Shown here: piece by piece, positions 4,912 to 50,964 of the stretch | Position numbering within the stretch: position 1 is the stretch's first letter | How the letters are laid out: each line of letters begins with the position of its first letter | Notes under the pieces: generated by a model | Told to the model about the DNA's origin: nothing | Database searches by the model: none | What the model saw: only the letters and a program-made list of their open reading frames with translations | Made by a program: the position numbers and the translations under genes | Origin: Candidatus Omnitrophota bacterium | Lineage (GTDB): Bacteria; Omnitrophota; Gorgyraeia; Gygaellales; Profunditerraquicolaceae | Length of the DNA: 64,000 bases | Reading direction: 5' to 3' | Assembly: GCA_028716245.1 (NCBI GenBank) | Contig: JAQUQW010000001.1 | Location: forward strand, 296,793 to 360,792

Positions 4912-6465
4912 ATGAAGAAAAAAGAACGACCCACCAAAGATATGGAAAAATTGATTGCCTTGGGCAAACAGAAGGGTTTTCTTACTTACGATGAAGTCAA
5001 TGATCTTCTGCCCGAGGATCTTTCCAGCACCGTGGCCATCGACCATCTTTTTGAGTTGCTGGGCAATGAAGACATCCAGGTAGTTGAAGGCGAGGAGGAT
5101 GCCGGCTTGTCCGCAAGCCGGGCTGCCCAGGATAAACAAAATCTGGCTGCCAACCGGGAGGAGATTATTTGCGAACAGCTTAAGAGTGAAGAGCGTTTTA
5201 TGCCTTTAGATGATCCGGTAAAGATGTACTTGAAGCAGATGGGTTCAATTTCGCTATTGAGCCGGGAAAATGAAATCGAGCTGGCTAAAAAGATTGAGGA
5301 TGCCGAAGATAAATTCAAGCGCGCGGTCCTGGTGACTAAATTTGCCAGAAATGAGGTTTTAATTGTTGCCAATGATATCTTGGAAGACAAGATTAATATG
5401 GAAGAGGTGGTTAAAGAAGATATCCGGATAAAAAAAAGCAGCGTCCTGGGAAGGTTTAAGCGTATTTTAGCCAAAGCTAAGCAGACCCGCAGCGATAGTA
5501 ATGCGATTAATCTGATATTACAGCTTAACTTTACAACTTCCGTAATTGAAGCCGCGGTGCGTAAGCTGAGCCTTTTGATCCGGGAGCTTGATTATCTGAA
5601 GCGTTCGGGAAAAAGGAGTAATCTGCGCTGCCGCCAAATACTAAAAGAACTTGCTCAGCCCTACGGTAAAATTAAAGAGCAGATGAAGTTGATAAAATCT
5701 GCGCATCTTAAGTTTAGCCGCACGAAGAAAAAACTAGTAGAGGCAAACCTGCGCCTGGTTGTAAGTATTGCCAAAAAATATACTAATCGCGGCCTTTCCT
5801 TTTTGGATTTAATACAAGAAGGAAATATCGGATTGATGCGTGCGGTAGAGAAATTTGAATATAAACGCGGCTACAAATTTTCCACTTACGCAACCTGGTG
5901 GATCCGCCAGGCAATAACCCGTTCAATTGCCGATCAGGCGCGGACCATCAGGATACCGGTGCATATGACCGAAACGATCAATAAGATAATCCGTTTCTCA
6001 AGGGTCTTTGTCCAGAAGAACGGGCGTGAGCCCACTCCTGAGGAGATCGCCCATAAAATGCGTTTTCCGCAGGGTAAAATAAAATCCATATTAAAGATTG
6101 CGCAGGAGCCCATTTCATTACAGATGCCCATCGGGGATGAAGGGGATACGCATTTTGGGGATTTTATTCAGGATAAAAAAGCGGTTTCCCCCGCCAATGA
6201 AACCGTCCGTTCCATGCTCAAAGACGAAATGAATTCCGCTTTAAGTACCTTGACTGAAAGAGAGAAAAAAATCCTGGTTTTGCGTTTTGGTATCCAAGAC
6301 GGAGCCGCGCGCACTTTAGAAGAGGTAGGCAATGTTTTTAAGGTTACCCGCGAAAGAGTCAGGCAGATTGAGGCTAAAGCTTTAAAGAAACTCAGGCATC
6401 CGTCACGTTCGCGCAGATTGCGCACCTTTATGGATATGACATTGGCACACCAAAGGGAATATTGA
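4912..6465 (+). CDS. rpoD: RNA polymerase sigma-70 factor
   Basis: Region 2 ([28 protein letters not shown]), region 3 and region 4 ([29 protein letters not shown]). dnaG-rpoD synteny. Confidence 0.9.
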
Positions 6466-6494
6466 TTTTGGGGCTGTCCTTTTATTAATTAGAG

Positions 6495-8318
6495 ATGGAA
6501 AACCAAAAAGACAATAAAAAGGAAGAGGATAAGTCCAAAGATATCCGCGCCGAACTTGAGCTTAGGGTTAGGGTCAGGACAGCGGAATTGACCAGTTTAA
6601 ATGAAGAGCTGCGTAAAGAGATCAGCGAGCGCAAAGCAGTAGAAGCAGGGGCCGATACATTACATCAGCAGATTGGGTTTATTCTTGAGGCAACTAAGGC
6701 GGGTTTGGATATAATTGATAAAAATTATAATATTCTTTATGTAGATCCAAAACGGGCGCACCAGTATGGGGACTGGAAACAAAAAAAATGCTTTGAGTAC
6801 TTTATGGATCGCAAAAGCCCTTGCCTTGGGTGCGCTATCGATGAGGCACTCAAGACAAAAAAATCCATAGTTACTGAAAATGTACTGGCAAAAGAGGCTA
6901 ACCGGCCGATCCAGGTTACGGCAATACCTTTCCAAAATGAAAAAGGGGACTGGTTTATTGCCGAAGTAAGCGTCGATATAAGCCAGAAGAAGAAAGCTGA
7001 AGAAGAGTTGCAGCGTTACCGCAATCATTTGGAGCAGTTGGTGGAGGAACGCACGCAAGACCTTTTACAGGAGACGATCCGCTACCGGAATTCTGAATTT
7101 GAAAAAAGCAGGTTAAACCGCCAGCTGCTCAAAACTAATGAAAAATTAAAAAGCATCTCGCTTATCGACGCGCATACCGGTTTATTTAATTACCGTTACC
7201 TGCAGGATGCTATTGAAGTTGAGTTCAATCAGGCCAGGCGATACGCCCAGAATTTGGCCTTGCTTATGCTTGATGTCGATTATTTTAAATCCATAAATGA
7301 CGTATATGGGGTCGCTTTCGGGGATTTAGTTTTAAAGCAGCTGGCCGCTCAACTTAAGCGCATGGTCAGGCGTTATGATATCCTCATCCGCTATAGCGGA
7401 GAAGAATTTATCATTATCTCTCCCAGGTTAAACCGCAATACCGCCTTTAATATGGCGCAAAGGCTGCTTGAATCTCTGAATTTTATCAATTTCGGGAATA
7501 AAAAACACAGCGTTAAATTGAAATTAAGTTTTTCCGTGGTTTCTTTTCCCGAAGACAGGGTAAAGGGCGGAATAGATTTAGTCAATCTGGCCAATAGGGT
7601 GTTAAATAAGGTTAAGGAGAGCGGCGGCAACAGGGTATTTTCCGCCCTGGATATCAAAAGCCAGTTCAAGAAGGGGGTTGAAAAAATAACCAAAGCAGTG
7701 GGGGTAAAAACTTTAAAGAATACAATCAGTAAACTTAATAAGCAATCAAAACAGGGTTTGAGTGAATCCATTTTTGCTTTTGCCAAGACCCTGGAATTAA
7801 AAGACCATTACACCGGTGAGCATGTTGAAAACACGGTGCATTTTGCGACCGAGATAGCCAGGGAATTAAACTTACCTAAAGAGGATGTCGAATTGATCAA
7901 ACAGGCGGCAATGCTGCATGATTTAGGCAAGATCGGCATAAGCGAAAATATTCTGCTTAAGAAAGGCAAACTTAATAAGCGGGAGTTTAATGAGATCAAA
8001 AAACATCCGCAGATCGGCGCCGACATTATCCGGCCAATCCAGTTTTTACACGCCTTGATTCCGTTCATATTTTACCATCATGAGCGCTGGGACGGAAAAG
8101 GTTATCCCAGCGGAATAAGGGGAGAAGATATTCCTCTTGGGGCCAGGGTGATTGCGATTGCCGATGTCTATCAAGCCTTGATCAGCGACCGCCCCTATCA
8201 TAAAGCGTTTACTAAATCCGCGGCGATAGATATAATCAAAAAATCCTCGGGCACACAGTTTGATCCCCGTATCGTAAATACTTTTCTAAAGGTCTTGGGC
8301 CGGGAAAAGAAACCCTAA
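6495..8318 (+). CDS. GGDEF-domain (SGEEF variant) plus HD-GYP-domain c-di-GMP turnover protein, with N-terminal coiled-coil and a Cys-rich PAS-like sensor region
   Basis: Diguanylate-cyclase fold with RYSGEEF, followed by an HD-GYP domain (HDLGKIGI ... HHERWDGKGYP). The N-terminus has CFEYFMDRKSPCLGC. Confidence 0.8.
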   Translation: MENQKDNKKEEDKSKDIRAELELRVRVRTAELTSLNEELRKEISERKAVEAGADTLHQQIGFILEATKAGLDIIDKNYNILYVDPKRAHQYGDWKQKKCFEYFMDRKSPCLGCAIDEALKTKKSIVTENVLAKEANRPIQVTAIPFQNEKGDWFIAEVSVDISQKKKAEEELQRYRNHLEQLVEERTQDLLQETIRYRNSEFEKSRLNRQLLKTNEKLKSISLIDAHTGLFNYRYLQDAIEVEFNQARRYAQNLALLMLDVDYFKSINDVYGVAFGDLVLKQLAAQLKRMVRRYDILIRYSGEEFIIISPRLNRNTAFNMAQRLLESLNFINFGNKKHSVKLKLSFSVVSFPEDRVKGGIDLVNLANRVLNKVKESGGNRVFSALDIKSQFKKGVEKITKAVGVKTLKNTISKLNKQSKQGLSESIFAFAKTLELKDHYTGEHVENTVHFATEIARELNLPKEDVELIKQAAMLHDLGKIGISENILLKKGKLNKREFNEIKKHPQIGADIIRPIQFLHALIPFIFYHHERWDGKGYPSGIRGEDIPLGARVIAIADVYQALISDRPYHKAFTKSAAIDIIKKSSGTQFDPRIVNTFLKVLGREKKP

Positions 8319-8388: not shown

Positions 8389-8462
8389 GGGCCCATAGCT
8401 CAGTCGGTTAGAGCAGTTGACTCATAATCAATTGGTCCGGGGTTCGAGTCCCTGTGGGCCCA
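8389..8462 (+). tRNA. tRNA-Met (anticodon CAU), elongator-like
   Basis: Manual fold. Acceptor stem GGGCCCA/TGGGCCC, D stem GCTC/GAGC, anticodon loop CUCAUAA, T loop GTTCGAGTC. It resembles the elongator Met tRNA. Confidence 0.85.
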
Positions 8463-8476
8463 GTATAATTTTTTAT

Positions 8477-8550
8477 GGGCGATTGGCTCAGTTGGTTAGA
8501 GCGCCACATTCACATTGTGGAAGTCAGGGGTTCGAATCCTCTATCGCCCA
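8477..8550 (+). tRNA. tRNA-Val (anticodon CAC)
   Basis: Manual fold. Acceptor stem GGGCGAT/ATCGCCC, anticodon stem CCACA/TGTGG with loop TTCACAT, T loop GTTCGAATC. Confidence 0.85.
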
Positions 8551-9301: not shown

Positions 9302-9723
9302 GCCATTTGAAAATTTACATCGACGGGGCATCGAAAGGTAATCCGGGCGAAAGCGGGGTGGGAGTTGTTATTTATCAGGATGACCGCATTATCAAAAAAA
9401 TTTCAGAATATATAGGGAGCGCTACGAATAACGCGGCTGAATATACGGCCTTAATCTATGCCCTTGAGGAGGCGTTATTATTAAAAGCCAAGAGTTTAGA
9501 GATTAACACGGACAGCCAGCTTTTGGCCAGGCAATTAAATAAGCTCTACAAGGTTAAACACGCGGGTATAAAAAATTTTTACAACCGGGTAACGCATCTT
9601 TTGACGGGTTTTGATAAAGCGCTGATTATTCATATTCCGCGGGAGCAAAATAAATTAGCGGATAAATTGGCAACCGAAGCGGTTAAAAAAAGCAGGCAGA
9701 ACGTGGCTGCCCTATTGAGATAG
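9298..9723 (+). CDS. rnhA: ribonuclease HI
   Basis: IYIDGASKGNPGESGVGVVI, TNNAAEYTALIYAL and DSQLLARQL catalytic motifs of RNase H type 1. Confidence 0.85.
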   Translation: MSHLKIYIDGASKGNPGESGVGVVIYQDDRIIKKISEYIGSATNNAAEYTALIYALEEALLLKAKSLEINTDSQLLARQLNKLYKVKHAGIKNFYNRVTHLLTGFDKALIIHIPREQNKLADKLATEAVKKSRQNVAALLR

Positions 9724-10025
9724 GGAGGAAAGTCCGGGCTCCAGAGGATAACGTAACGGGTAACCCCCGTCTCTTAACGCAAGTTAAGACGGATTCGAGC
9801 CACAGAGACGAGTAGCAGCTAAGGCTGCGAGGTGAAACGCGGCAATCTCTACGTGGAGCAAAGCAGAATAGGAGATGAGCGCTGATCCGGCGCGTTCCGT
9901 ATTTGCGGGAAATAATCTCGGGTAAGCTGCTAAAGTTCCGGGAGAAATTCCGGGATTGAGAGGAATAGCCACTAATCGATGCGCAGATTCGCATCAAGAC
10001 AGAACCCGGCTTATTCTGCCTGCTT
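9690..10025 (+). ncRNA. rnpB: RNase P RNA (bacterial type A)
   Basis: Universally conserved GGAGGAAAGTCCGGGCTCC at 9724-9742 and ACAGAACCCGGCTTA at 9999-10013. P1 helix AGCAGGCAGAA (9691-9701) pairs with TTCTGCCTGCT (10014-10024). The 5' end overlaps the last 30 nt or so of rnhA. Confidence 0.8.
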
Positions 10026-10047
10026 AATTATTAAAGAGGAGGAAGTT

Positions 10048-29143: not shown

Positions 29144-30573
29144 ACTACCAGACAGTCATCGGTTTAGAAGTCCACCTGCAATTAAAAACTAAAACCAAAG
29201 CGTTCTGCGGTTGCGCCATTGATTTTGGAAAAGCCCCTAATTCCGGCACTTGTCCGGTATGCCTGGGATTCCCCGGATCGCTTCCGGTTTATAATAAGGA
29301 GGCGTTAAATTCGGCAATCAAAGTGGCTTTGGCTTTTAATTGCCAGATACAGGAACACACGAAATTTGACCGCAAAAATTATTTTTATCCGGATTTACCG
29401 AAGAACTACCAGATTTCGCAATTCGACTTGCCTTTATCGCGCAACGGCCAGCTGATTATTTTCGACCAGGATCATCAGCCCAAGCGTATCGGCATTACCA
29501 GGATACATTTAGAGGAGGATGCCGGCAAGCTTATCCACGAAGCGGATTCCAGCCTGGTAGATTTTAACCGCACCGGAATCCCCCTGCTTGAAATTGTCAG
29601 TGAACCGGATTTAAACAGCCCCCAGGAAGCTTTTGATTATTTGAGCAGTTTAAAAAGCATCCTTGAATACCTGGATGTATCTGATTGCGATATGGAAAAG
29701 GGCTCTTTGCGCTGCGATGCCAATATATCTTTGCGGCCGCAAGGCGCCAAGGAATTAGGGGTCAAAACGGAATTAAAAAACATGAACTCTTTTAAAGGGG
29801 TTAAGGATGCTTTAACTTTTGAAGTCAAGCGTCAGACGGAATTGCTACAATCAGGGCAAAGTTGGCAGCAGGAAACCCGGCTTTGGGACGCGCAGAAAGG
29901 ACTGACCGTATCTATGCGCAGCAAAGAAGGGGCAAAAGATTACCGGTATTTTCCTGATCCGGACCTGGCAGTTTTTATCATCGATGCGCCGATGATTTCC
30001 CGAATAAAAGCCGGACTGCCGGAATTGCCTCAGGAAAAAATGCGGCGGTTTATGCAGGAGTATGCGTTATCCGAATATGACGCTAAAATTTTAACTTCTT
30101 CCAAGAAATTCGCCGACTACGCAGAAGAGTGCATGAAGATTTTCCCGGATAAAGACAAAAAGCCGATTGCGAATTGGTTGATTGGCCCGTTTACATCTGT
30201 TATATCCAATCTTGCCGATCAAGCCAAACAAGAATACATCCAATCAAAAAATCTTGTCGAATTGGTTGAACTGGTTGAAAAAAAACAAATTATTTCTAAT
30301 CTTACCGGTAAAATTGTTTTAGAAGAGATGTTCGCAACCGGGAACACGGCAAGGGCAATAATAACCGAAAAAAACCTGGCGCAGATTTCAGATACAGGCA
30401 GTCTTGAGATAATTGTGCAGGAAGTCATTAATGAAAACCCTAAGTCGGTGAGTGATTACAGCGCGGGAAAAACAAACGCGCTGATGTTCTTAGTCGGACA
30501 GGTGATGAAAAAGAGTGCCGGTAAGGCTAATCCTAAGGTGGTCACAGATCTGATAAAGAGGAGGCTGTCTTGA
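29140..30573 (+). CDS. gatB: Asp-tRNA(Asn)/Glu-tRNA(Gln) amidotransferase subunit B
   Basis: [15 protein letters not shown], the [12 protein letters not shown] zinc site, and the C-terminal YqeY-like tail. Confidence 0.9.
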
Positions 30574-31853
30574 TGCATAAAAAAATATTCATTGGGTTTT
30601 TATTTATTGTTCTTGTGCTTATCGGTACCAGGATCTCTTTTTCCGACAACAAGAATAAAAATAACGATGCGCTGTACAAACAGGTGGAACTATTTTCCGA
30701 TACCCTGGCAATTATCCAAAAGGAATATGTTGATGATACAAAACCCAAAGATTTGATTTATGGTTCATTAAAAGGCATGCTTTCTTCCCTTGATCCGCAC
30801 AGCCAATTTATGGATCCGGATACTTACAATGAATTAAAGGTGGATACCGAAGGAAAATTCGGCGGTCTGGGCATTGAAATTACCATCAAAGACGGTTTGC
30901 TCACCATAATTACCCCGATTGAAGATACCCCTGCCTGGAAAGCGGGAATAAAAGCTGGCGACCATATTGTAAAGATCAATGATGCCTTGACCCGCGAGAT
31001 GACCCTTACCGACGCGGTTAAGAAGATGCGCGGTGCGCCCGGAGAAACAGTTAATCTTACGATATTGCGGGATTCCGAAAATAAACTCCTGGATTTTAAA
31101 ATTACCAGGGCAGTCATTAAAATTGAAGATATAAAATATGCGCGTATTTTGGAGGATGGGATCGGTTATATCCGTTTGATTGAATTCCGCGAAAATACCT
31201 TGCAGGAATTCAATAATGCTTTAAGTTCTCTTGTCAAACAGGGAATGCAGGGTTTAATAATAGACTTGCGTAATAATCCCGGAGGGCTTCTGGATGTCGC
31301 GGTGAAAATCACCGGCCGGTTCATCGCACCCAATAAAATGATTGTTAATACCAAAGGCAGGCATAAAGAGCAGAATCTGGAGTTTTATTCTGACGCCAAA
31401 AACGCGCTTTTAGATTTACCTATGGTGATCCTGATTAATGGAGGCTCAGCTTCCGGCAGCGAAATTATGGCCGGGGCCCTTCAGGATTATAAACGCGCCA
31501 TAATTATCGGAACTAAATCTTTTGGCAAGGGCTCGGTTCAGACCGTTATACCTCTGGGGGATGGTTCAGCCTTACGCCTGACTACCAGCCACTATTTTAC
31601 GCCATCCGGTAAGATTATTAATGGTAAAGGGGTTACTCCGGATATTCTGGTGGAAGAGAATAAAGAGCCGGATCTTCTTAAAGACCAGGATGCAAAAGTT
31701 AAGAAACCAAATGAACTATTTAATGAGATTGAAAGTAAACAGCCTAAAAATAAGCCGATAGGAGAGGTTTTTAATTATAAGGATGATCTCCAGTTGATTC
31801 GCGCTCTGAATACCTTAAAAGCCATAGTAATTTATAAACAGTCAAAGTTGTAA
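30570..31853 (+). CDS. ctpA: carboxyl-terminal processing protease (S41 family) with PDZ domain
   Basis: PDZ (GGLGIEITIKDGLLTIITPIEDTPAWKAGIKAGDHIVKIND), the S41 catalytic region (LRNNPGGLLD ... SASGSEIMAGAL...GTKSFGKGSVQ), and a signal peptide. Confidence 0.85.
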   Translation: MMHKKIFIGFLFIVLVLIGTRISFSDNKNKNNDALYKQVELFSDTLAIIQKEYVDDTKPKDLIYGSLKGMLSSLDPHSQFMDPDTYNELKVDTEGKFGGLGIEITIKDGLLTIITPIEDTPAWKAGIKAGDHIVKINDALTREMTLTDAVKKMRGAPGETVNLTILRDSENKLLDFKITRAVIKIEDIKYARILEDGIGYIRLIEFRENTLQEFNNALSSLVKQGMQGLIIDLRNNPGGLLDVAVKITGRFIAPNKMIVNTKGRHKEQNLEFYSDAKNALLDLPMVILINGGSASGSEIMAGALQDYKRAIIIGTKSFGKGSVQTVIPLGDGSALRLTTSHYFTPSGKIINGKGVTPDILVEENKEPDLLKDQDAKVKKPNELFNEIESKQPKNKPIGEVFNYKDDLQLIRALNTLKAIVIYKQSKL

Positions 31854-31868
31854 AAGTATCTGTAAATA

Positions 31869-32645
31869 TTGCGGTCAATGAAAAATAAGCCTCTGATTGT
31901 TATCGCGGTAATTTTAGTTTTACTTTTATTCATTGCCCTTATTCTGACACCGATTTATAAAAAAGTGCCGGGCAAGAAAGTCTTTGCAAAGGCAAGAATC
32001 GCCATCGTAATTGATGATTGGGGTTATCATTTGGATAATCTGGCAATCATCAAAAAAATAAAGGTGCCTTTGACCTGCGCGATTTTACCGAACTTAAAAA
32101 ATTCAAGCCTTGTCGCCCAAAAATTGAATGGTTTTGGTTTTGAAATAATCCTCCACCTGCCAATGGAGCCTAAAGAAAAAATCAGGTTGGAAAGCAATAC
32201 CATCACCTCCGTTATGGATGCCGGCCAGATTCATGATATCCTGGATAAAGATTTAGCCTCGGTTATCTTTGCCAAAGGAATTTCTAACCACATGGGATCA
32301 CGGATTACCGAGGATAGAAAGATCAGCGCAATAGTAATGGCCGAAGTAAAAAAACGTAAGCTATATTTCCTGGATAGTTTTGTAACCGCTAAATCCGTCT
32401 GCCGGGAAATTTCCGCAAAGATAAAAGTAAGATTCGCCAGAAGAGATGTATTTCTGGATAATCAGGATGATCCGGTATATATAAGAGACCAGTTGATGAA
32501 ATTAATGAACCTGGCCAGAAGGCAAAAAACTGTAATTGCTATCGGCCATGATCGTAAAAACACTTTAACGGTATTAAATGAAATGCTTCCAACAATGAAA
32601 AAAGAAGGCTATAAATTTGTTTTTGTTTCGGAGATAGCTAGATGA
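31869..32645 (+). CDS. divergent polysaccharide deacetylase family protein (YibQ-like)
   Basis: N-terminal TM helix, then IAIVIDDWGY...LTCAILP...ILHLPMEP, typical of the YibQ/DUF610 family. Confidence 0.65.
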   Translation: MRSMKNKPLIVIAVILVLLLFIALILTPIYKKVPGKKVFAKARIAIVIDDWGYHLDNLAIIKKIKVPLTCAILPNLKNSSLVAQKLNGFGFEIILHLPMEPKEKIRLESNTITSVMDAGQIHDILDKDLASVIFAKGISNHMGSRITEDRKISAIVMAEVKKRKLYFLDSFVTAKSVCREISAKIKVRFARRDVFLDNQDDPVYIRDQLMKLMNLARRQKTVIAIGHDRKNTLTVLNEMLPTMKKEGYKFVFVSEIAR

Positions 32646-33625: not shown

Positions 33626-33630
33626 CTAAT

Positions 33631-33727
33631 ACCCCGCGCTAAAGACACCCGACGCTAAGAGGTATTGTGTAGGTGTGCGCTAAGTAGCGCAAATTGCGCG
33701 GGTGTGCGCTTTCTGCGCAAGGAGGAG
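33631..33727 (+). promoter_or_regulatory. structured leader element copy B (longest copy, with internal duplication) upstream of the mgtC-bactofilin operon
   Basis: ACCCCGCGC ... GGTATTGTGTAGGTGTGCGCTAAGTAGCGC ... GCGCGGGTG, then hairpin TGCGC-TTTCT-GCGCA, then AAGGAGG. The 3' module co-varies with copy A. Confidence 0.4.
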
Positions 33728-33730
33728 AAA

Positions 33731-34177
33731 ATGCCTACTGATTTAGAAATGGTTACGCGTTTATTATTGACTTTAACCTTAAGCGGATTAATTGGCCTTG
33801 AGCGGCAGGTCCACCGCAGGGATGCCGGCTTGCGCACGCATATACTGGTAGCTTTAGGTTCATGTCTTATAATGTTGACATCTATATATGTTTTTGATAT
33901 ATATAAAGACAGTGCTTCGCTGGATCCGGCCCGTATTGCCGCCGGGGTAATCACCGGTATTGGATTTCTGGGCGCTGGCGCCATAATCCGTGAACCTGAA
34001 CGGATCCGGGGGCTGACTACCGCTGCCAGTTTATGGGTAGTTGCCGGCATTGGTTTAGCGGTAGGAATCGGTTTTAATAAAGTAGCAATCTATACCACAA
34101 TTTTGGTATTAATCGTTTTGCATTTCTTGCGTTACGTGGAAGGATCGCTCACCAAGGAGGATAAACATGGCATTTAA
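33731..34177 (+). CDS. MgtC/SapB family membrane protein (N-terminal MgtC domain only)
   Basis: LIGLERQVHRRDAGLRTHILVALGSCLIML...AAGVITGIGFLGAGAI. ATG at 33731 with an AAGGAGG RBS. The ORF-track start at 33665 lies inside the leader element and is rejected. Confidence 0.7.
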   Translation: MPTDLEMVTRLLLTLTLSGLIGLERQVHRRDAGLRTHILVALGSCLIMLTSIYVFDIYKDSASLDPARIAAGVITGIGFLGAGAIIREPERIRGLTTAASLWVVAGIGLAVGIGFNKVAIYTTILVLIVLHFLRYVEGSLTKEDKHGI

Positions 34178-34670
34178 AAAGAAACTGGAGGAAAAAACTC
34201 TGGATGTGGACGCGGCAATGCAGGGGACTTTAAGCTTCAAAGATCCGGTTAATCTGCGTATTAATGGAAAATTCGAAGGAAATCTGGATACCCGCGGCAA
34301 CCTTACGGTCGGACCTACCGCCATAATTAATGCCGATATTATCGGGGATAATATTATTATCGGAGGCAAGGTTAAAGGTAAAATTACCGCCCGCGAACGG
34401 CTGACTCTCTTGCCGCAAGCCGTAGTTGAGGGCCATATTTATCCGGCAAAACTTAATGTTGCCGAAGGCGCTATTCTTGAAGGCCAATGTTCGATGCTCC
34501 ATGATTTTCTTAACTCCGAGCAGCTGGCAAAATACCTGGAAGTAGAATTAAGCTCGATCATGGAGTGGGCTAATTCGGGAAAGGTCCCGGCGAATAAAGA
34601 GAATGATGATTGGAAATTCGAACGTAAAGCCATAGACAGCTGGGTGGCTGCGGGTAAAATAGGAAAATAA
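34167..34670 (+). CDS. bactofilin (polymer-forming beta-helix protein) fused to a C-terminal excisionase/MerR-type HTH domain
   Basis: Bactofilin repeat pattern NLRINGKFEGNLDTRGNLTVGPTAIINADIIGDNIIIGGKVKGKITARERLTLLPQAVVEGHIYPAKLNVAEGAILEGQCSM, followed by SEQLAKYLEVELSSIMEWANSGKVPANKENDDWKFERKAIDSWV (HTH_17-like). Overlaps mgtC by 11 nt. Confidence 0.75.
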   Translation: MAFKKKLEEKTLDVDAAMQGTLSFKDPVNLRINGKFEGNLDTRGNLTVGPTAIINADIIGDNIIIGGKVKGKITARERLTLLPQAVVEGHIYPAKLNVAEGAILEGQCSMLHDFLNSEQLAKYLEVELSSIMEWANSGKVPANKENDDWKFERKAIDSWVAAGKIGK

Positions 34671-34683
34671 ACTTACGATAAAA

Positions 34684-34995
34684 ATGAGCGAAGAAAAAAT
34701 GCTGACAGTCAGGGATGTCTCGATTATACTGGGCATATCGGAGAAGGATGTTTTAGATCTAACTGAAAACGGAACGATTCCCGGTTATAAAATAGGAGGC
34801 GTATACTTAAGGTTTAAAAAAGAACAGGTTGAGCAGTATAAAAAAACCCAGCATCACCTGCACCCAAACGCGCTCAAACAGGAATCCGCAGGTTTTGGCA
34901 GCAAGATTTCCGATTTTTTCTATTTCCACGATTTCTATATCCTGGCCGCAATTCTTATAATCCTTTTAGGATATCTTGTTTACCGGGGCCTATAG
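34684..34995 (+). CDS. membrane-anchored excisionase-type HTH DNA-binding protein
   Basis: MLTVRDVSIILGISEKDVLDLTENGTIPGYKIGGVYLRFKKEQVEQY is an HTH_17 domain, followed by a C-terminal TM helix (FFYFHDFYILAAILIILLGYLVY). Confidence 0.6.
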   Translation: MSEEKMLTVRDVSIILGISEKDVLDLTENGTIPGYKIGGVYLRFKKEQVEQYKKTQHHLHPNALKQESAGFGSKISDFFYFHDFYILAAILIILLGYLVYRGL

Positions 34996-35000
34996 TTTAA

Positions 35001-35672
35001 ATGTCTGTGAAAAAAGGTTTTTGCGATTTAGGGTTTGCCAAGTTTGACATCGATAGAATAAAACGTAAAGGGTTTGCCGAAGTTATTTATTGTCCGGGTA
35101 AGGACCGGGCGCACTTAAAAGAAATTGCCAAAAAAATAACTAAGTCCAAACAAGACCTGTTGTTAACCAAGCTGGACAAAGCCACGTTTTCTTTTTTAAA
35201 GAAAGTTATTCCCGCGTTAAAATATAACCCTCTGGCAAAAATCGGCTATCTCTTAGCAAAACCTAAAATCCTCTCTAGAGGTTCGATTTTAGTGGTTTCC
35301 GCGGGCACCAGCGACATTCCTATAGCTGAAGAAGCGGCGCAAACCTTGGAAATTATGGGTAATCGCGTTGAAAGATTATACGATGTCGGCGTAGCCGGCG
35401 TACACCGCCTGATGGATAATATTGAGAAATTAAAACTAGCTCAGGTAATCATTGTTGTGGCGGGAATGGAAGGGGCTTTACCAAGTTTAGTCAGCGGGTT
35501 GGTCAAGGCGCCGATTATCGCGGTTCCGACCAGCTGCGGCTATGGCTCCAGTTTTTCCGGTCTGGCCGCGCTGCTGACGATGTTAAACGGATGCTCGCCG
35601 GGGGTCACAGTGGTAAATATAGATAACGGGTTCGGGGCGGGTTATTTTGCCAGTTTGATCAACAGGGGATAA
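35001..35672 (+). CDS. larB: LarB-like PurE-fold protein (nickel-pincer cofactor biosynthesis carboxylase family)
   Basis: PurE-like core (ILVVSAGTSDIPIAEEAAQTLEIMGNRVERLYDVGVAGVHRL...VIIVVAGMEGALPSLVSGLVKAPIIAVPTS) with an N-terminal extension of about 85 aa, as in LarB. Confidence 0.6.
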   Translation: MSVKKGFCDLGFAKFDIDRIKRKGFAEVIYCPGKDRAHLKEIAKKITKSKQDLLLTKLDKATFSFLKKVIPALKYNPLAKIGYLLAKPKILSRGSILVVSAGTSDIPIAEEAAQTLEIMGNRVERLYDVGVAGVHRLMDNIEKLKLAQVIIVVAGMEGALPSLVSGLVKAPIIAVPTSCGYGSSFSGLAALLTMLNGCSPGVTVVNIDNGFGAGYFASLINRG

Positions 35673-50657: not shown

Positions 50658-50730
50658 GCCGGCGTAGCTCAGTTGGCAGAGCGGCTGTTTTGTAAACAGC
50701 GGGTCGGGGGTTCAATTCCTCTCGCCGGCT
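50658..50730 (+). tRNA. tRNA-Thr (anticodon UGU)
   Basis: Manual fold. Acceptor stem GCCGGCG/CGCCGGC, anticodon stem GCTGT/ACAGC with loop TTTGTAA. Confidence 0.85.
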
Positions 50731-50746
50731 TTTGATAAATAAAATC

Positions 50747-50833
50747 GGGCAGGTACCCAAGTTGGTCAAAGGGGACAGACTGTAAATCTGTTGCACTTGT
50801 GCTTCAGAGGTTCGAATCCTCTCCTGCCCACCA
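50747..50833 (+). tRNA. tRNA-Tyr (anticodon GUA), long variable arm, CCA encoded
   Basis: Acceptor stem GGGCAGG/CCTGCCC, anticodon loop CTGTAAA, and a long extra arm. Confidence 0.85.
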
Positions 50834-50850
50834 TTTTAATACTTTCGCAG

Positions 50851-50900
50851 CACCCGGCGCTAATAGGTATTGCGTCGGTGCGCGCTAGGTAGCGCGGGAG
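50851..50900 (+). promoter_or_regulatory. structured leader element copy C, inserted between tRNA-Tyr and tRNA-Gly; its 3' end merges with the tRNA-Gly acceptor stem
   Basis: CACCCGGCGCTAATAGGTATTGCGTCGGTGCGCGCTAGGTAGCGCGGGAG is about 85% identical to the central part of copy B (33631-33690). The terminal GCGGGAG is the first 7 nt of tRNA-Gly. Confidence 0.4.
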
Positions 50901-50964
50901 TAGTTCAGTGGTAGAACAATAGCCTTCCAAGCTATATATGGGGGTTCGATTCCCCTCTCCCGCT
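50894..50964 (+). tRNA. tRNA-Gly (anticodon UCC)
   Basis: Acceptor stem GCGGGAG/CTCCCGC, anticodon stem ATAGC/GCTAT with loop CTTCCAA, discriminator U. Confidence 0.85.

Follow-up and report, generated by a model that had tools for sequence, protein, structure and literature searches.

A bactofilin fused to a winged helix and its predicted tail-anchored partner form a conserved two-protein module of Omnitrophota and related bacteria

Why would a bactofilin end in a folded domain of DNA-binding type, and why would its gene be followed by one for a second such domain on a membrane anchor? The question is raised by a locus in a 64,000-nucleotide stretch of contig JAQUQW010000001.1 from a Candidatus Omnitrophota bacterium (contig positions 296,793 to 360,792); this whole stretch is referred to as the window, and its numbering is used throughout. 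Three closely packed genes on the forward strand fill positions 33731–34995: an MgtC-domain gene, bacHTH, which encodes a bactofilin with a C-terminal winged helix-turn-helix (HTH) of the HTH_17 type, and hthTM, which encodes an HTH_17 protein with a predicted C-terminal transmembrane helix. BacHTH and HthTM constitute a two-protein module that is conserved in, and specific to, Omnitrophota and their relatives in the Planctomycetes-Verrucomicrobia-Chlamydiae (PVC) group. Our preferred reading of its function, to which we assign a probability of roughly 0.42, is a DNA tether: a bactofilin polymer attached to the membrane and bearing arrays of winged helices would hold DNA there in concert with the tail-anchored HthTM. 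The features of the locus are as follows.

33731–34177, + strand: mgtC-type gene for a 148-residue membrane protein that is an MgtC domain only (Pfam PF02308, 139.7 bits against a cutoff of 31.4, E = 7.8e-41)
34167–34670, + strand: bacHTH, 167 residues, a bactofilin with a C-terminal HTH_17 winged helix (Pfam)
34167–34196, + strand: BacHTH N-terminal tail MAFKKKLEEK (residues 1–10), a candidate membrane-targeting sequence, from its conservation and likeness to a consensus
34197–34496, + strand: BacHTH bactofilin β-helix core (residues 11–110), from the Pfam match to residues 12–108 and PDB profile matches
34506–34652, + strand: BacHTH C-terminal winged HTH of the MerR/excisionase type (residues 114–162), from Pfam HTH_17 and Foldseek
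34684–34995, + strand: hthTM, a 103-residue predicted tail-anchored protein with an N-terminal HTH_17 domain (Pfam, E = 3e-9)
34699–34851, + strand: HthTM winged helix (residues 6–56), from Pfam, AlphaFold2 and Foldseek
34906–34986, + strand: HthTM aromatic juxtamembrane motif and C-terminal transmembrane helix (residues 75–101), from the orthologue alignment, hydropathy and the model

Both halves of BacHTH score above their family thresholds, with residues 12–108 matching the Pfam Bactofilin family (PF04519/DUF583; E = 4.9e-24, 84.9 bits against a cutoff of 27.9) and residues 114–162 matching HTH_17 (PF12728; E = 2.2e-7, 31.5 bits against a cutoff of 27). A preliminary description of this DNA, made from the letters alone, had proposed this architecture, and the structural models and Foldseek comparisons agree with it. 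The AlphaFold2 model of BacHTH, built on a 25-sequence alignment, has a mean predicted local distance difference test score (pLDDT) of 86, rising above 90 across the β-helix core. It predicts a disordered stretch at residues 1–8 (pLDDT below 50), a right-handed β-helix at residues 11–105 and, C-terminal to it, a winged HTH composed of helices 117–124 and 128–137, a hairpin at 143–152 and a helix at 153–161, and it contains no coiled coil. In Foldseek searches of the PDB the β-helix superposes on Caulobacter crescentus BacA (2n3d) with a template modelling (TM) score of 0.84 and a root mean square deviation (rmsd) of 2.2 Å, and on the Thermus bactofilin (6rib) with a TM score of 0.77; profile searches of the PDB returned the same family (BacA, 2n3d, E = 1.4e-14; TtBac, 6ria, E = 3.9e-14).

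The winged helix of BacHTH lies closest to proteins that bind DNA as architectural factors. Foldseek aligned it to BldC with an rmsd of 1.4–1.5 Å over 49 residues and also matched it to the excisionase RdfS, RacA, Pukovnik Xis, NmlR and CbpM (3ucs), the range for BldC, RdfS and RacA together being 1.2–2.3 Å. By sequence, the BacHTH family profile reaches BldC (6amk, E = 3.5e-3) and RacA (5i41, E = 3.6e-3); single-sequence searches of the PDB with the HTH of BacHTH or of HthTM returned zero matches, and only the family profile reached these two proteins. The score of BacHTH against the NCBIfam model HTH_BldC, 12.3 bits against a cutoff of 77, leaves it outside the BldC family proper.

Two further features of the bactofilin half bear on what it might do. 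The Phe of the family consensus "egavfeG" aligns with a Phe of BacA and of TtBac, and the window protein has the hydrophobic L104 at this position; by our residue count alone, this Phe would correspond to the polymerisation residue, F130 in BacA and F105 in TtBac. The N-terminal tail MAFKKKLEEK resembles MFSKKKK, the global membrane-targeting consensus of bactofilins (PMC12448750), and may bind the membrane; the tails of divergent members are basic but variable.

A frameshift or an assembly artefact that joins two separate genes, for which the preliminary description had asked for a check, is ruled out with next to no residual doubt, as the same architecture and length recur in hundreds of separate NCBI, JGI, ENA and Logan assemblies and divergent members keep the fusion with variable linkers. 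A search of 5.8 billion proteins with BacHTH gave 1,894 matches, and the best 120 clusters at 90% identity are all 167–169 residues long with both Pfam domains present; each organism-assigned cluster among these 120 is from Omnitrophota. An exhaustive HMMER search, run against 1.84 billion representatives (50% identity), retrieved 9,117 bactofilin-like proteins, of which no more than ∼20 clusters aligned over both domains (161–192 residues, 24–56% identity to the query, linkers of 5–25 residues), and the organism-named members of these clusters belong to Omnitrophota or to a "PVC group bacterium." In a scan of one genome per species, at least 131 genomes encode a BacHTH relative, and, some questionable record labels described next apart, those with a phylum-level label are Omnitrophota or PVC bacteria. 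The counts and identity ranges given below for the related loci rest on the best 80 of these 131 genome loci.

Two oddities of the public records concern this distribution. At ∼6435–6545 of locus L068 a run of N joins the end of bacHTH to the start of hthTM and produces an apparent merged open reading frame, which is an assembly gap and not a natural fusion. Thirteen contigs (L008, L011, L014, L026, L028, L029, L033, L046, L048–L050, L062 and L074) carry the same Omnitrophota-type syntenic block under the record labels "uncultured Planctomycetales," "Candidatus Pacebacteria" or "Candidatus Margulisiibacteriota"; these labels are probably placeholder or mis-binned taxonomy.

The partner protein repeats the theme in a different setting. 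Residues 6–56 of HthTM match HTH_17 with 37.4 bits against a cutoff of 27, and the protein also exceeds the threshold of the NCBIfam model "excise" (35.7 bits, cutoff 28.8). Its hydropathy peaks at residues 81–99 (19-residue window, mean Kyte-Doolittle value 2.14), and the AlphaFold2 model (pLDDT 68.5) predicts a winged helix at residues 6–59 (helices 9–16 and 20–28, hairpin 34–45, helix 46–59), a disordered linker and a single long helix at residues 71–101. Foldseek placed the modelled winged helix 1.3–2.1 Å rmsd from Pukovnik Xis, BldC and RacA, with CbpM and the N-terminal domains of TniQ also among the MerR-like fold matches. All partners, divergent ones included, share one layout of winged helix, variable basic linker, the aromatic juxtamembrane motif DFFYFNDFYI and a transmembrane helix, and this helix ends no more than five residues from the C-terminus in an alignment of 78 orthologues and in the divergent partners. 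From this layout and the model, HthTM is predicted to be a tail-anchored protein with its winged helix in the cytoplasm. A homologue search returned 636 protein clusters, and among the best 120 each organism-assigned one is again from Omnitrophota.

HthTM had been called a membrane-anchored paralog of the fused HTH. The membrane-anchored companion stands, as described below, and a profile-level relationship is borne out by hhalign (probability 97.6%, E = 3.6e-12); "paralog" was, however, an overstatement, as the two HTH domains share 13% identity and BLASTP gave no alignment between them. Their profiles indicate that the two winged helices are homologous at this level only and are not recent duplicates.

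Conservation within the neighbourhood is greatest for BacHTH. Across the 80 loci its identity to the window protein is 74–98%, with 162–167 of the 167 residues covered in all but L068, compared with 55–94% for LarB, 50–91% for TsaD and 46–90% for HthTM, and its length is fixed at 167 residues among relatives. That it tops TsaD, a universal tRNA-modification enzyme, is unusual for a lineage-specific protein. The constraint extends over the whole chain: median identity among 79 orthologues is 90% for the N-terminal decapeptide, 84% for the β-helix and 79% for the winged helix. In HthTM (76 orthologues) the winged helix has a median identity of 74.5% and the juxtamembrane motif 80%, with the linker at 23%. 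These values point to strong purifying selection on the fusion.

The genes bacHTH and hthTM are adjacent in 80 of 80 related loci, within a gene order (Polysacc_deac_2-TsaD-MgtC-BacHTH-HthTM-LarB-corrinoid Fe-S protein) that is nearly invariant. In the window the 3' end of the mgtC-type gene overlaps the start of bacHTH by 11 nucleotides, and AAGGAGG, a strong Shine-Dalgarno sequence, lies 6 nucleotides 5' of the bacHTH ATG. The MgtC/BacHTH overlap is exactly 11 nucleotides in 40 of 73 loci, with overlap of some form in 44 of 73, and the median distances at the other junctions are 9.5 nucleotides from BacHTH to HthTM, 4 from HthTM to LarB and 19 from TsaD to MgtC, so that the gene spacing is operon-like. 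Given that the 80 loci come from mutually related genomes, we also compared divergent members in other contexts (identity to the window BacHTH in parentheses).

L081 (49%): TsaD-BacHTH-HthTM-SNase-TilS
L087 (53%): TsaD-MgtC-BacHTH-HthTM-PolA-CoaE-Rho
L089 (49%): BatD-TPR-MgtC-BacHTH-HthTM-PDZ
L090 (47%): BacHTH-HthTM-GreA-ACPS
L091 (44%): DnaE-response regulator/kinase-BacHTH-HthTM-chorismate-binding enzyme
L085 (35%): SPOR-TPR/PDZ-BacHTH-HthTM
L092 (46%): fusion without an HTH partner
L084 (24%): fusion without an HTH partner

Counting the clade of the window as one of nine contexts, the BacHTH-HthTM pair is kept in seven, and this pair is the conserved core of the unit. The mgtC-type gene, which the preliminary description had placed in an operon with the pair, does overlap bacHTH in the window but lies directly upstream in only three of the nine contexts, with differing flanks (the window clade, L087 and L089), and is missing in L043, L044, L052, L081, L085, L090 and L091; it is a frequent yet optional third member. 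LarB and the upstream genes accompany the pair through shared descent alone. The trio of S41 C-terminal processing peptidase, Polysacc_deac_2 protein and TsaD (30570–32645 in the window) is kept even in the 49–53% relatives L081 and L087. This recurring cell-envelope neighbourhood, which includes the SPOR and PDZ/TPR genes before the L085 pair, might hint at an envelope-related role.

What could such a pair do? From the domains we infer that BacHTH polymerises, that it binds the membrane and DNA and that it contacts HthTM. BacHTH would polymerise through its bactofilin β-helix into a filament or sheet at the membrane, where its lysine-rich N-terminal tail and the tail-anchored HthTM would hold the polymer. 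The polymer would present a regular array of BldC/RacA-like winged helices, and this array, together with the cytoplasmic winged helix of HthTM, would hold DNA through high avidity, probably with little sequence specificity. Part of the nucleoid would thereby be tethered to the membrane. Several findings speak for this tether. The three elements of DNA-membrane tethers (a targeting-like tail, a polymerisation domain and a MerR-type winged helix) are all present, the partner is a minimal winged helix with a basic linker and a transmembrane anchor, and among solved structures both winged helices come closest to architectural proteins that bind DNA, namely BldC, RacA and the excisionases RdfS, Pukovnik Xis and Tn916 Xis. 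On DNA, BldC forms cooperative head-to-tail multimers (PMC5859096), and oligomers and superhelical polymers are described in the papers on RdfS; a scaffold that polymerises would suit this multimeric mode. The high conservation of BacHTH, its fixed length and the retention of the pair across gene contexts also count for the tether.

The closest functional parallels are RacA of Bacillus subtilis, RicO of Staphylococcus aureus and RocS of Streptococcus pneumoniae, which likewise combine a small MerR-type winged helix, self-association and membrane attachment, RacA attaching through DivIVA and RicO and RocS through an amphipathic helix (bioRxiv 10.64898/2026.03.06.710092). The RacA DNA-binding domain is among the best profile and fold matches to both BacHTH and HthTM. 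These proteins, however, rely on a coiled coil and carry the winged helix at the N-terminus, whereas BacHTH has a bactofilin β-helix and a C-terminal winged helix, and here, unlike in those systems, there is a second, transmembrane-anchored winged-helix protein and the Arg essential in RacA (R19) and RicO (R18) is replaced by an acidic residue. RacA, RicO and RocS come from Firmicutes and BacHTH from Omnitrophota, and the likeness would be functional only.

BldC of Streptomyces, Xis and RdfS provide the closest folds, with an rmsd of 1.2–1.8 Å over ∼50 residues, and the helix-2 pattern D-x-x-x-V-x-x-W-A-x-x-G-K of the fused domain (seen, for example, in P0132, DPKTLNQWAQKGK) is akin to that of BldC (DPKTVTRWAKAGK). 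These proteins are free-standing and ∼55–70 residues long, in contrast to a domain fused to a 110-residue bactofilin with no recombinase nearby.

We assessed whether the winged helices retain the residues through which these relatives hold DNA, by counting residues in 93 BacHTH and 77 HthTM sequences at BldC positions taken from a PDB profile alignment, with residue roles taken from the literature. BldC R30 and RacA R19 make specific base contacts (PMC5859096 for BldC; bioRxiv 10.64898/2026.03.06.710092 for RacA), and DNA binding is lost when RacA carries the R19A substitution or RicO the R18A substitution (bioRxiv 10.64898/2026.03.06.710092). Several results here weigh against the tether. The position of BldC R30 is Glu or Asp in 85 of the 93 BacHTH sequences (E133 in the window) and Arg or Lys in 3, and in HthTM it is Asp, Glu, Asn or Ser in 76 of 77 and never basic. 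The positions of BldC K26, T29, K33, H46 and R47 are not conserved in BacHTH either. The fused winged helix is net acidic, with a median charge of -2 compared with +5 for BldC and 0 for RacA; CbpM (3ucs), a MerR-like fold that binds protein, is among the fold matches; and within the window we found no DNA target, par genes or origin-proximal evidence.

Other positions are kept. The equivalent of BldC W31, which in BldC contacts phosphate and forms part of the oligomer interface (PMC5859096), is Trp (W134) in 92 of the 93 BacHTH sequences. At the wing position of BldC R48 a basic residue stands in 83 of 93 BacHTH and in all 77 HthTM sequences, and the position of R153 is basic in 91 of 93 BacHTH sequences. 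The residues L124, V126 and W134, which correspond to F21, V23 and W31 of the head-to-tail interface of BldC, are the best-conserved surface positions of the fused domain. Hence DNA binding by both winged helices, as judged from sequence and models, is plausible though unproven. Given the lost base-reading Arg, the unconserved contact residues and the acidic charge, DNA would, if bound at all, be bound non-canonically, and the avidity of the polymer would probably drive such binding, with little specificity. For the anchoring of DNA proposed in the preliminary description, this leaves in its favour the presence of RacA among the nearest solved relatives and the parallel with RacA, RicO and RocS, but against it the acidic residue in place of the base-reading Arg and the acidity of the fused HTH. 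Its "segregation-like" label has no direct support, as no ParA/ParB-type gene accompanies the pair, the very distant relative L084 excepted.

The same residues can be read in another way, with the module acting as a protein-protein adaptor whose winged helices would have lost DNA binding and would pair with each other, or one of which would dock on the bactofilin β-helix. The acidic residue that replaces the DNA-reading Arg in both families and the net acidity of the fused domain would suit such a role, as would the conservation of L124, V126 and W134, and both CbpM and the N-terminal domains of TniQ show MerR-like folds put to use in protein contacts. Moreover, BacR of B. subtilis is bound directly by the bactofilins BacE and BacF through a predicted interface near its HTH, in competition with DNA (PMC13649987). 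In this reading HthTM would simply be a membrane receptor or client of the polymer, as the cytoplasmic tail of PbpC is for BacA, and the scaffold would organise proteins of the envelope or membrane, MgtC for example. Recruitment of membrane clients is typical of bactofilins (PMC12448750), and envelope genes stand beside the pair in several contexts (S41 peptidase, Polysacc_deac_2, SPOR, PDZ/TPR). However, each of the two domains passes the Pfam threshold for HTH_17 and finds its closest structures among DNA-bound proteins, the wing Arg/Lys and subsequent basic residues are conserved, and the RacA winged helix binds DNA at a net charge of 0. We regard the adaptor as the main rival of the tether and somewhat less likely than it.

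BacR (YhbD) and BacE/BacF also offer the nearest genetic precedent, an HTH protein linked to bactofilins, in which the bactofilins bring BacR to the membrane and compete with DNA for it (PMC13649987). BacR is a separate, soluble DUF4004 protein without a transmembrane helix, whereas here one winged helix is fused and the other tail-anchored. This precedent raises a further explanation, that BacHTH, HthTM or both are transcription factors gated by polymerisation, in which bactofilin assembly or membrane sequestration would switch access to an operator and control the operon itself or its neighbours. Membrane-tethered HTH regulators are a recognised type. BacR itself, whose gene lies in a bactofilin operon, is a MerR-like HTH regulator that bactofilins keep at the membrane until cell-wall stress releases it to the nucleoid (PMC13649987), and BldC is a transcription factor (PMC5859096). 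The comparative data fit this explanation poorly. Conservation above that of TsaD is more in keeping with a structural polymer than with a regulator, the genes on either side vary among lineages while the pair stays and thus offer no constant target operon, and the upstream "leader" described below is unconserved, with a TsaD-MgtC gap of ∼19 nucleotides in most relatives and no conserved operator region. The base-reading Arg is also lost. We regard gated regulation as improbable.

Annotation points in one more direction, as the JGI name for both proteins is "excisionase family DNA binding protein," and weak matches to MAD1 of the MADS defence system were obtained (37.7 and 33.7 bits; PADLOC mad1, E = 2.5e-4 to 6e-4). 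A mobile-element excisionase (recombination directionality factor) or a MADS-type defence component is nevertheless very improbable. The MAD1 scores fall far below the 80-bit cutoff (NCBIfam NF047737), no integrase or methylase lies nearby, and the synteny S41 peptidase-Polysacc_deac_2-TsaD-...-LarB-CFeSP is kept across 80 species genomes, in which the gene appears to be core and not accessory. On the conserved chromosomal synteny and the sub-cutoff MAD1 scores, we treat this role as ruled out.

Returning to the DNA tether, two other bactofilin systems show how it would differ from known arrangements. In Myxococcus xanthus the BacNOP scaffold is likewise linked to the chromosome and positions DNA-bound complexes, but it reaches DNA only indirectly, by way of the adaptor PadC and of ParB on parS, and no ParB-like domain or par genes were found here. 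The canonical bactofilins (C. crescentus BacA with PbpC; Thermus thermophilus) share the β-helix core (TM scores 0.77–0.84), a targeting-like tail and a bitopic membrane partner, but end in a short disordered tail, in place of which BacHTH has a folded winged helix. N-terminal transmembrane helices occur in about 3% of bactofilins (PMC12448750), and no DNA-binding-type bactofilin fusion is described in the papers we retrieved.

The databases already tag the two domains automatically, and the NCBI label for the fusion is "polymer-forming cytoskeletal protein." In full-text literature searches we found no paper describing a fusion of a bactofilin with an HTH or an excisionase, nor one on bactofilins in Omnitrophota, in keeping with the impression of the preliminary description that this was not a described system. 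The bactofilin and the HTH_17 fold are each genuine and not a new kind of protein; what is new is their covalent combination and the conserved tail-anchored partner, with no characterised member. A more ambitious claim, that the module is a new class of nucleoid-membrane tether in which a bactofilin polymer with its own DNA-binding heads is pinned to the membrane by a tail-anchored partner and serves as a core chromosome-organising device of Omnitrophota, we put forward only tentatively.

Bactofilins are known as passive scaffolds that recruit clients, and their sole known link to the chromosome is the indirect one through PadC and ParB in Myxococcus. A folded head of DNA-binding type, conserved beyond TsaD across more than 130 species, would widen the range of the family and strengthen the recurring association of bactofilins with MerR-like HTH proteins seen for BacR in Bacillus. 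If the tether is correct, this would be the first bacterial cytoskeletal polymer with a built-in DNA-binding domain; if the winged helices are protein adaptors, the module would still represent a new way to anchor a bactofilin at the membrane. It would also open cell organisation to concrete tests in Omnitrophota, which are known here from metagenome-assembled genomes only.

The two relatives without an HTH partner have neighbourhoods of their own. In L092 (642–6399) the fusion is followed by a 234-residue protein that combines an N-terminal transmembrane helix with a lengthy charged stretch resembling a coiled coil; a STAS-domain protein precedes the fusion, and a phage-type integrase lies ∼3 kb upstream. 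L084 (1290–6567; JGI 3300009777, Ga0105164_10002154) holds the most divergent bactofilin-HTH_17 relative, at 24% identity. Clustered with it are a bacterial actin homologue of the Volactin family (Pfam, E = 2e-91), a ParA-family ATPase that carries a glycogen-binding CBM48/AMPK1_CBM domain at its C-terminus, and four family-less proteins. This may be a cargo-positioning gene cluster, and its Volactin and ParA-family neighbours lend circumstantial support to the tether reading. A magnetosome link, suggested by a "MamF_MmsF" label in L084 and a weak MamR match (E = 0.11), was rejected: the labelled protein is a DUF4870 protein below cutoff, and the MamK score is 21 bits against 400. We found no paper tying bactofilins to magnetosome gene clusters.

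The preliminary description had also placed copy B of a "leader motif" before the unit. The element is a 105-nucleotide GC-rich spacer at 33626–33730, upstream of mgtC, with short hairpins such as TGCGCTA-AG-TAGCGCA; a partial 45-nucleotide copy (87% identity) lies at 50851–50895, directly 5' of a tRNA gene. Among the relatives, a 32-nucleotide piece occurs in L001 (98% identical) and a copy in L020 (5651–5682, in the larB-CFeSP spacer), and the element is otherwise missing from the related loci. No Rfam family covers 33626–33730, and its fold z-score of -2.2 is marginally better than that of shuffled sequence. It looks like a small dispersed intergenic repeat and not a leader, and its membership of the unit is ruled out by its absence from nearly all relatives, in which the median TsaD-MgtC gap is 19 nucleotides; what had been taken for a leader appears to be a lineage-specific repeat.

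The MgtC-type protein is distinct from the full-length NCBIfam equivalogs of the Salmonella/E. coli type (215–231 residues), scoring 147 bits against 214 and 101 against 255, and its matches span model positions 4–141 of 215 only, without the C-terminal soluble domain. A promoter and terminator scan around the unit gave sites no more frequent than expected by chance, and no further bactofilin or HTH_17 gene occurs across the whole window. Upstream of the unit stand the genes for the S41 (CtpB-like) peptidase, the Polysacc_deac_2 protein and TsaD, and downstream those for LarB, a corrinoid Fe-S protein subunit (CdhD family) and RACo. The larB gene (35001–35672; nickel-pincer cofactor biosynthesis, NCBIfam 286 bits) lies directly before the acetyl-CoA-pathway corrinoid protein and RACo genes. 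Rfam further identified a bacterial RNase P RNA of class A at 9692–10027, two tRNA genes at 8389–8550 and a four-tRNA cluster at 50658–50964, and these housekeeping RNA genes confirm the chromosomal setting of the window.

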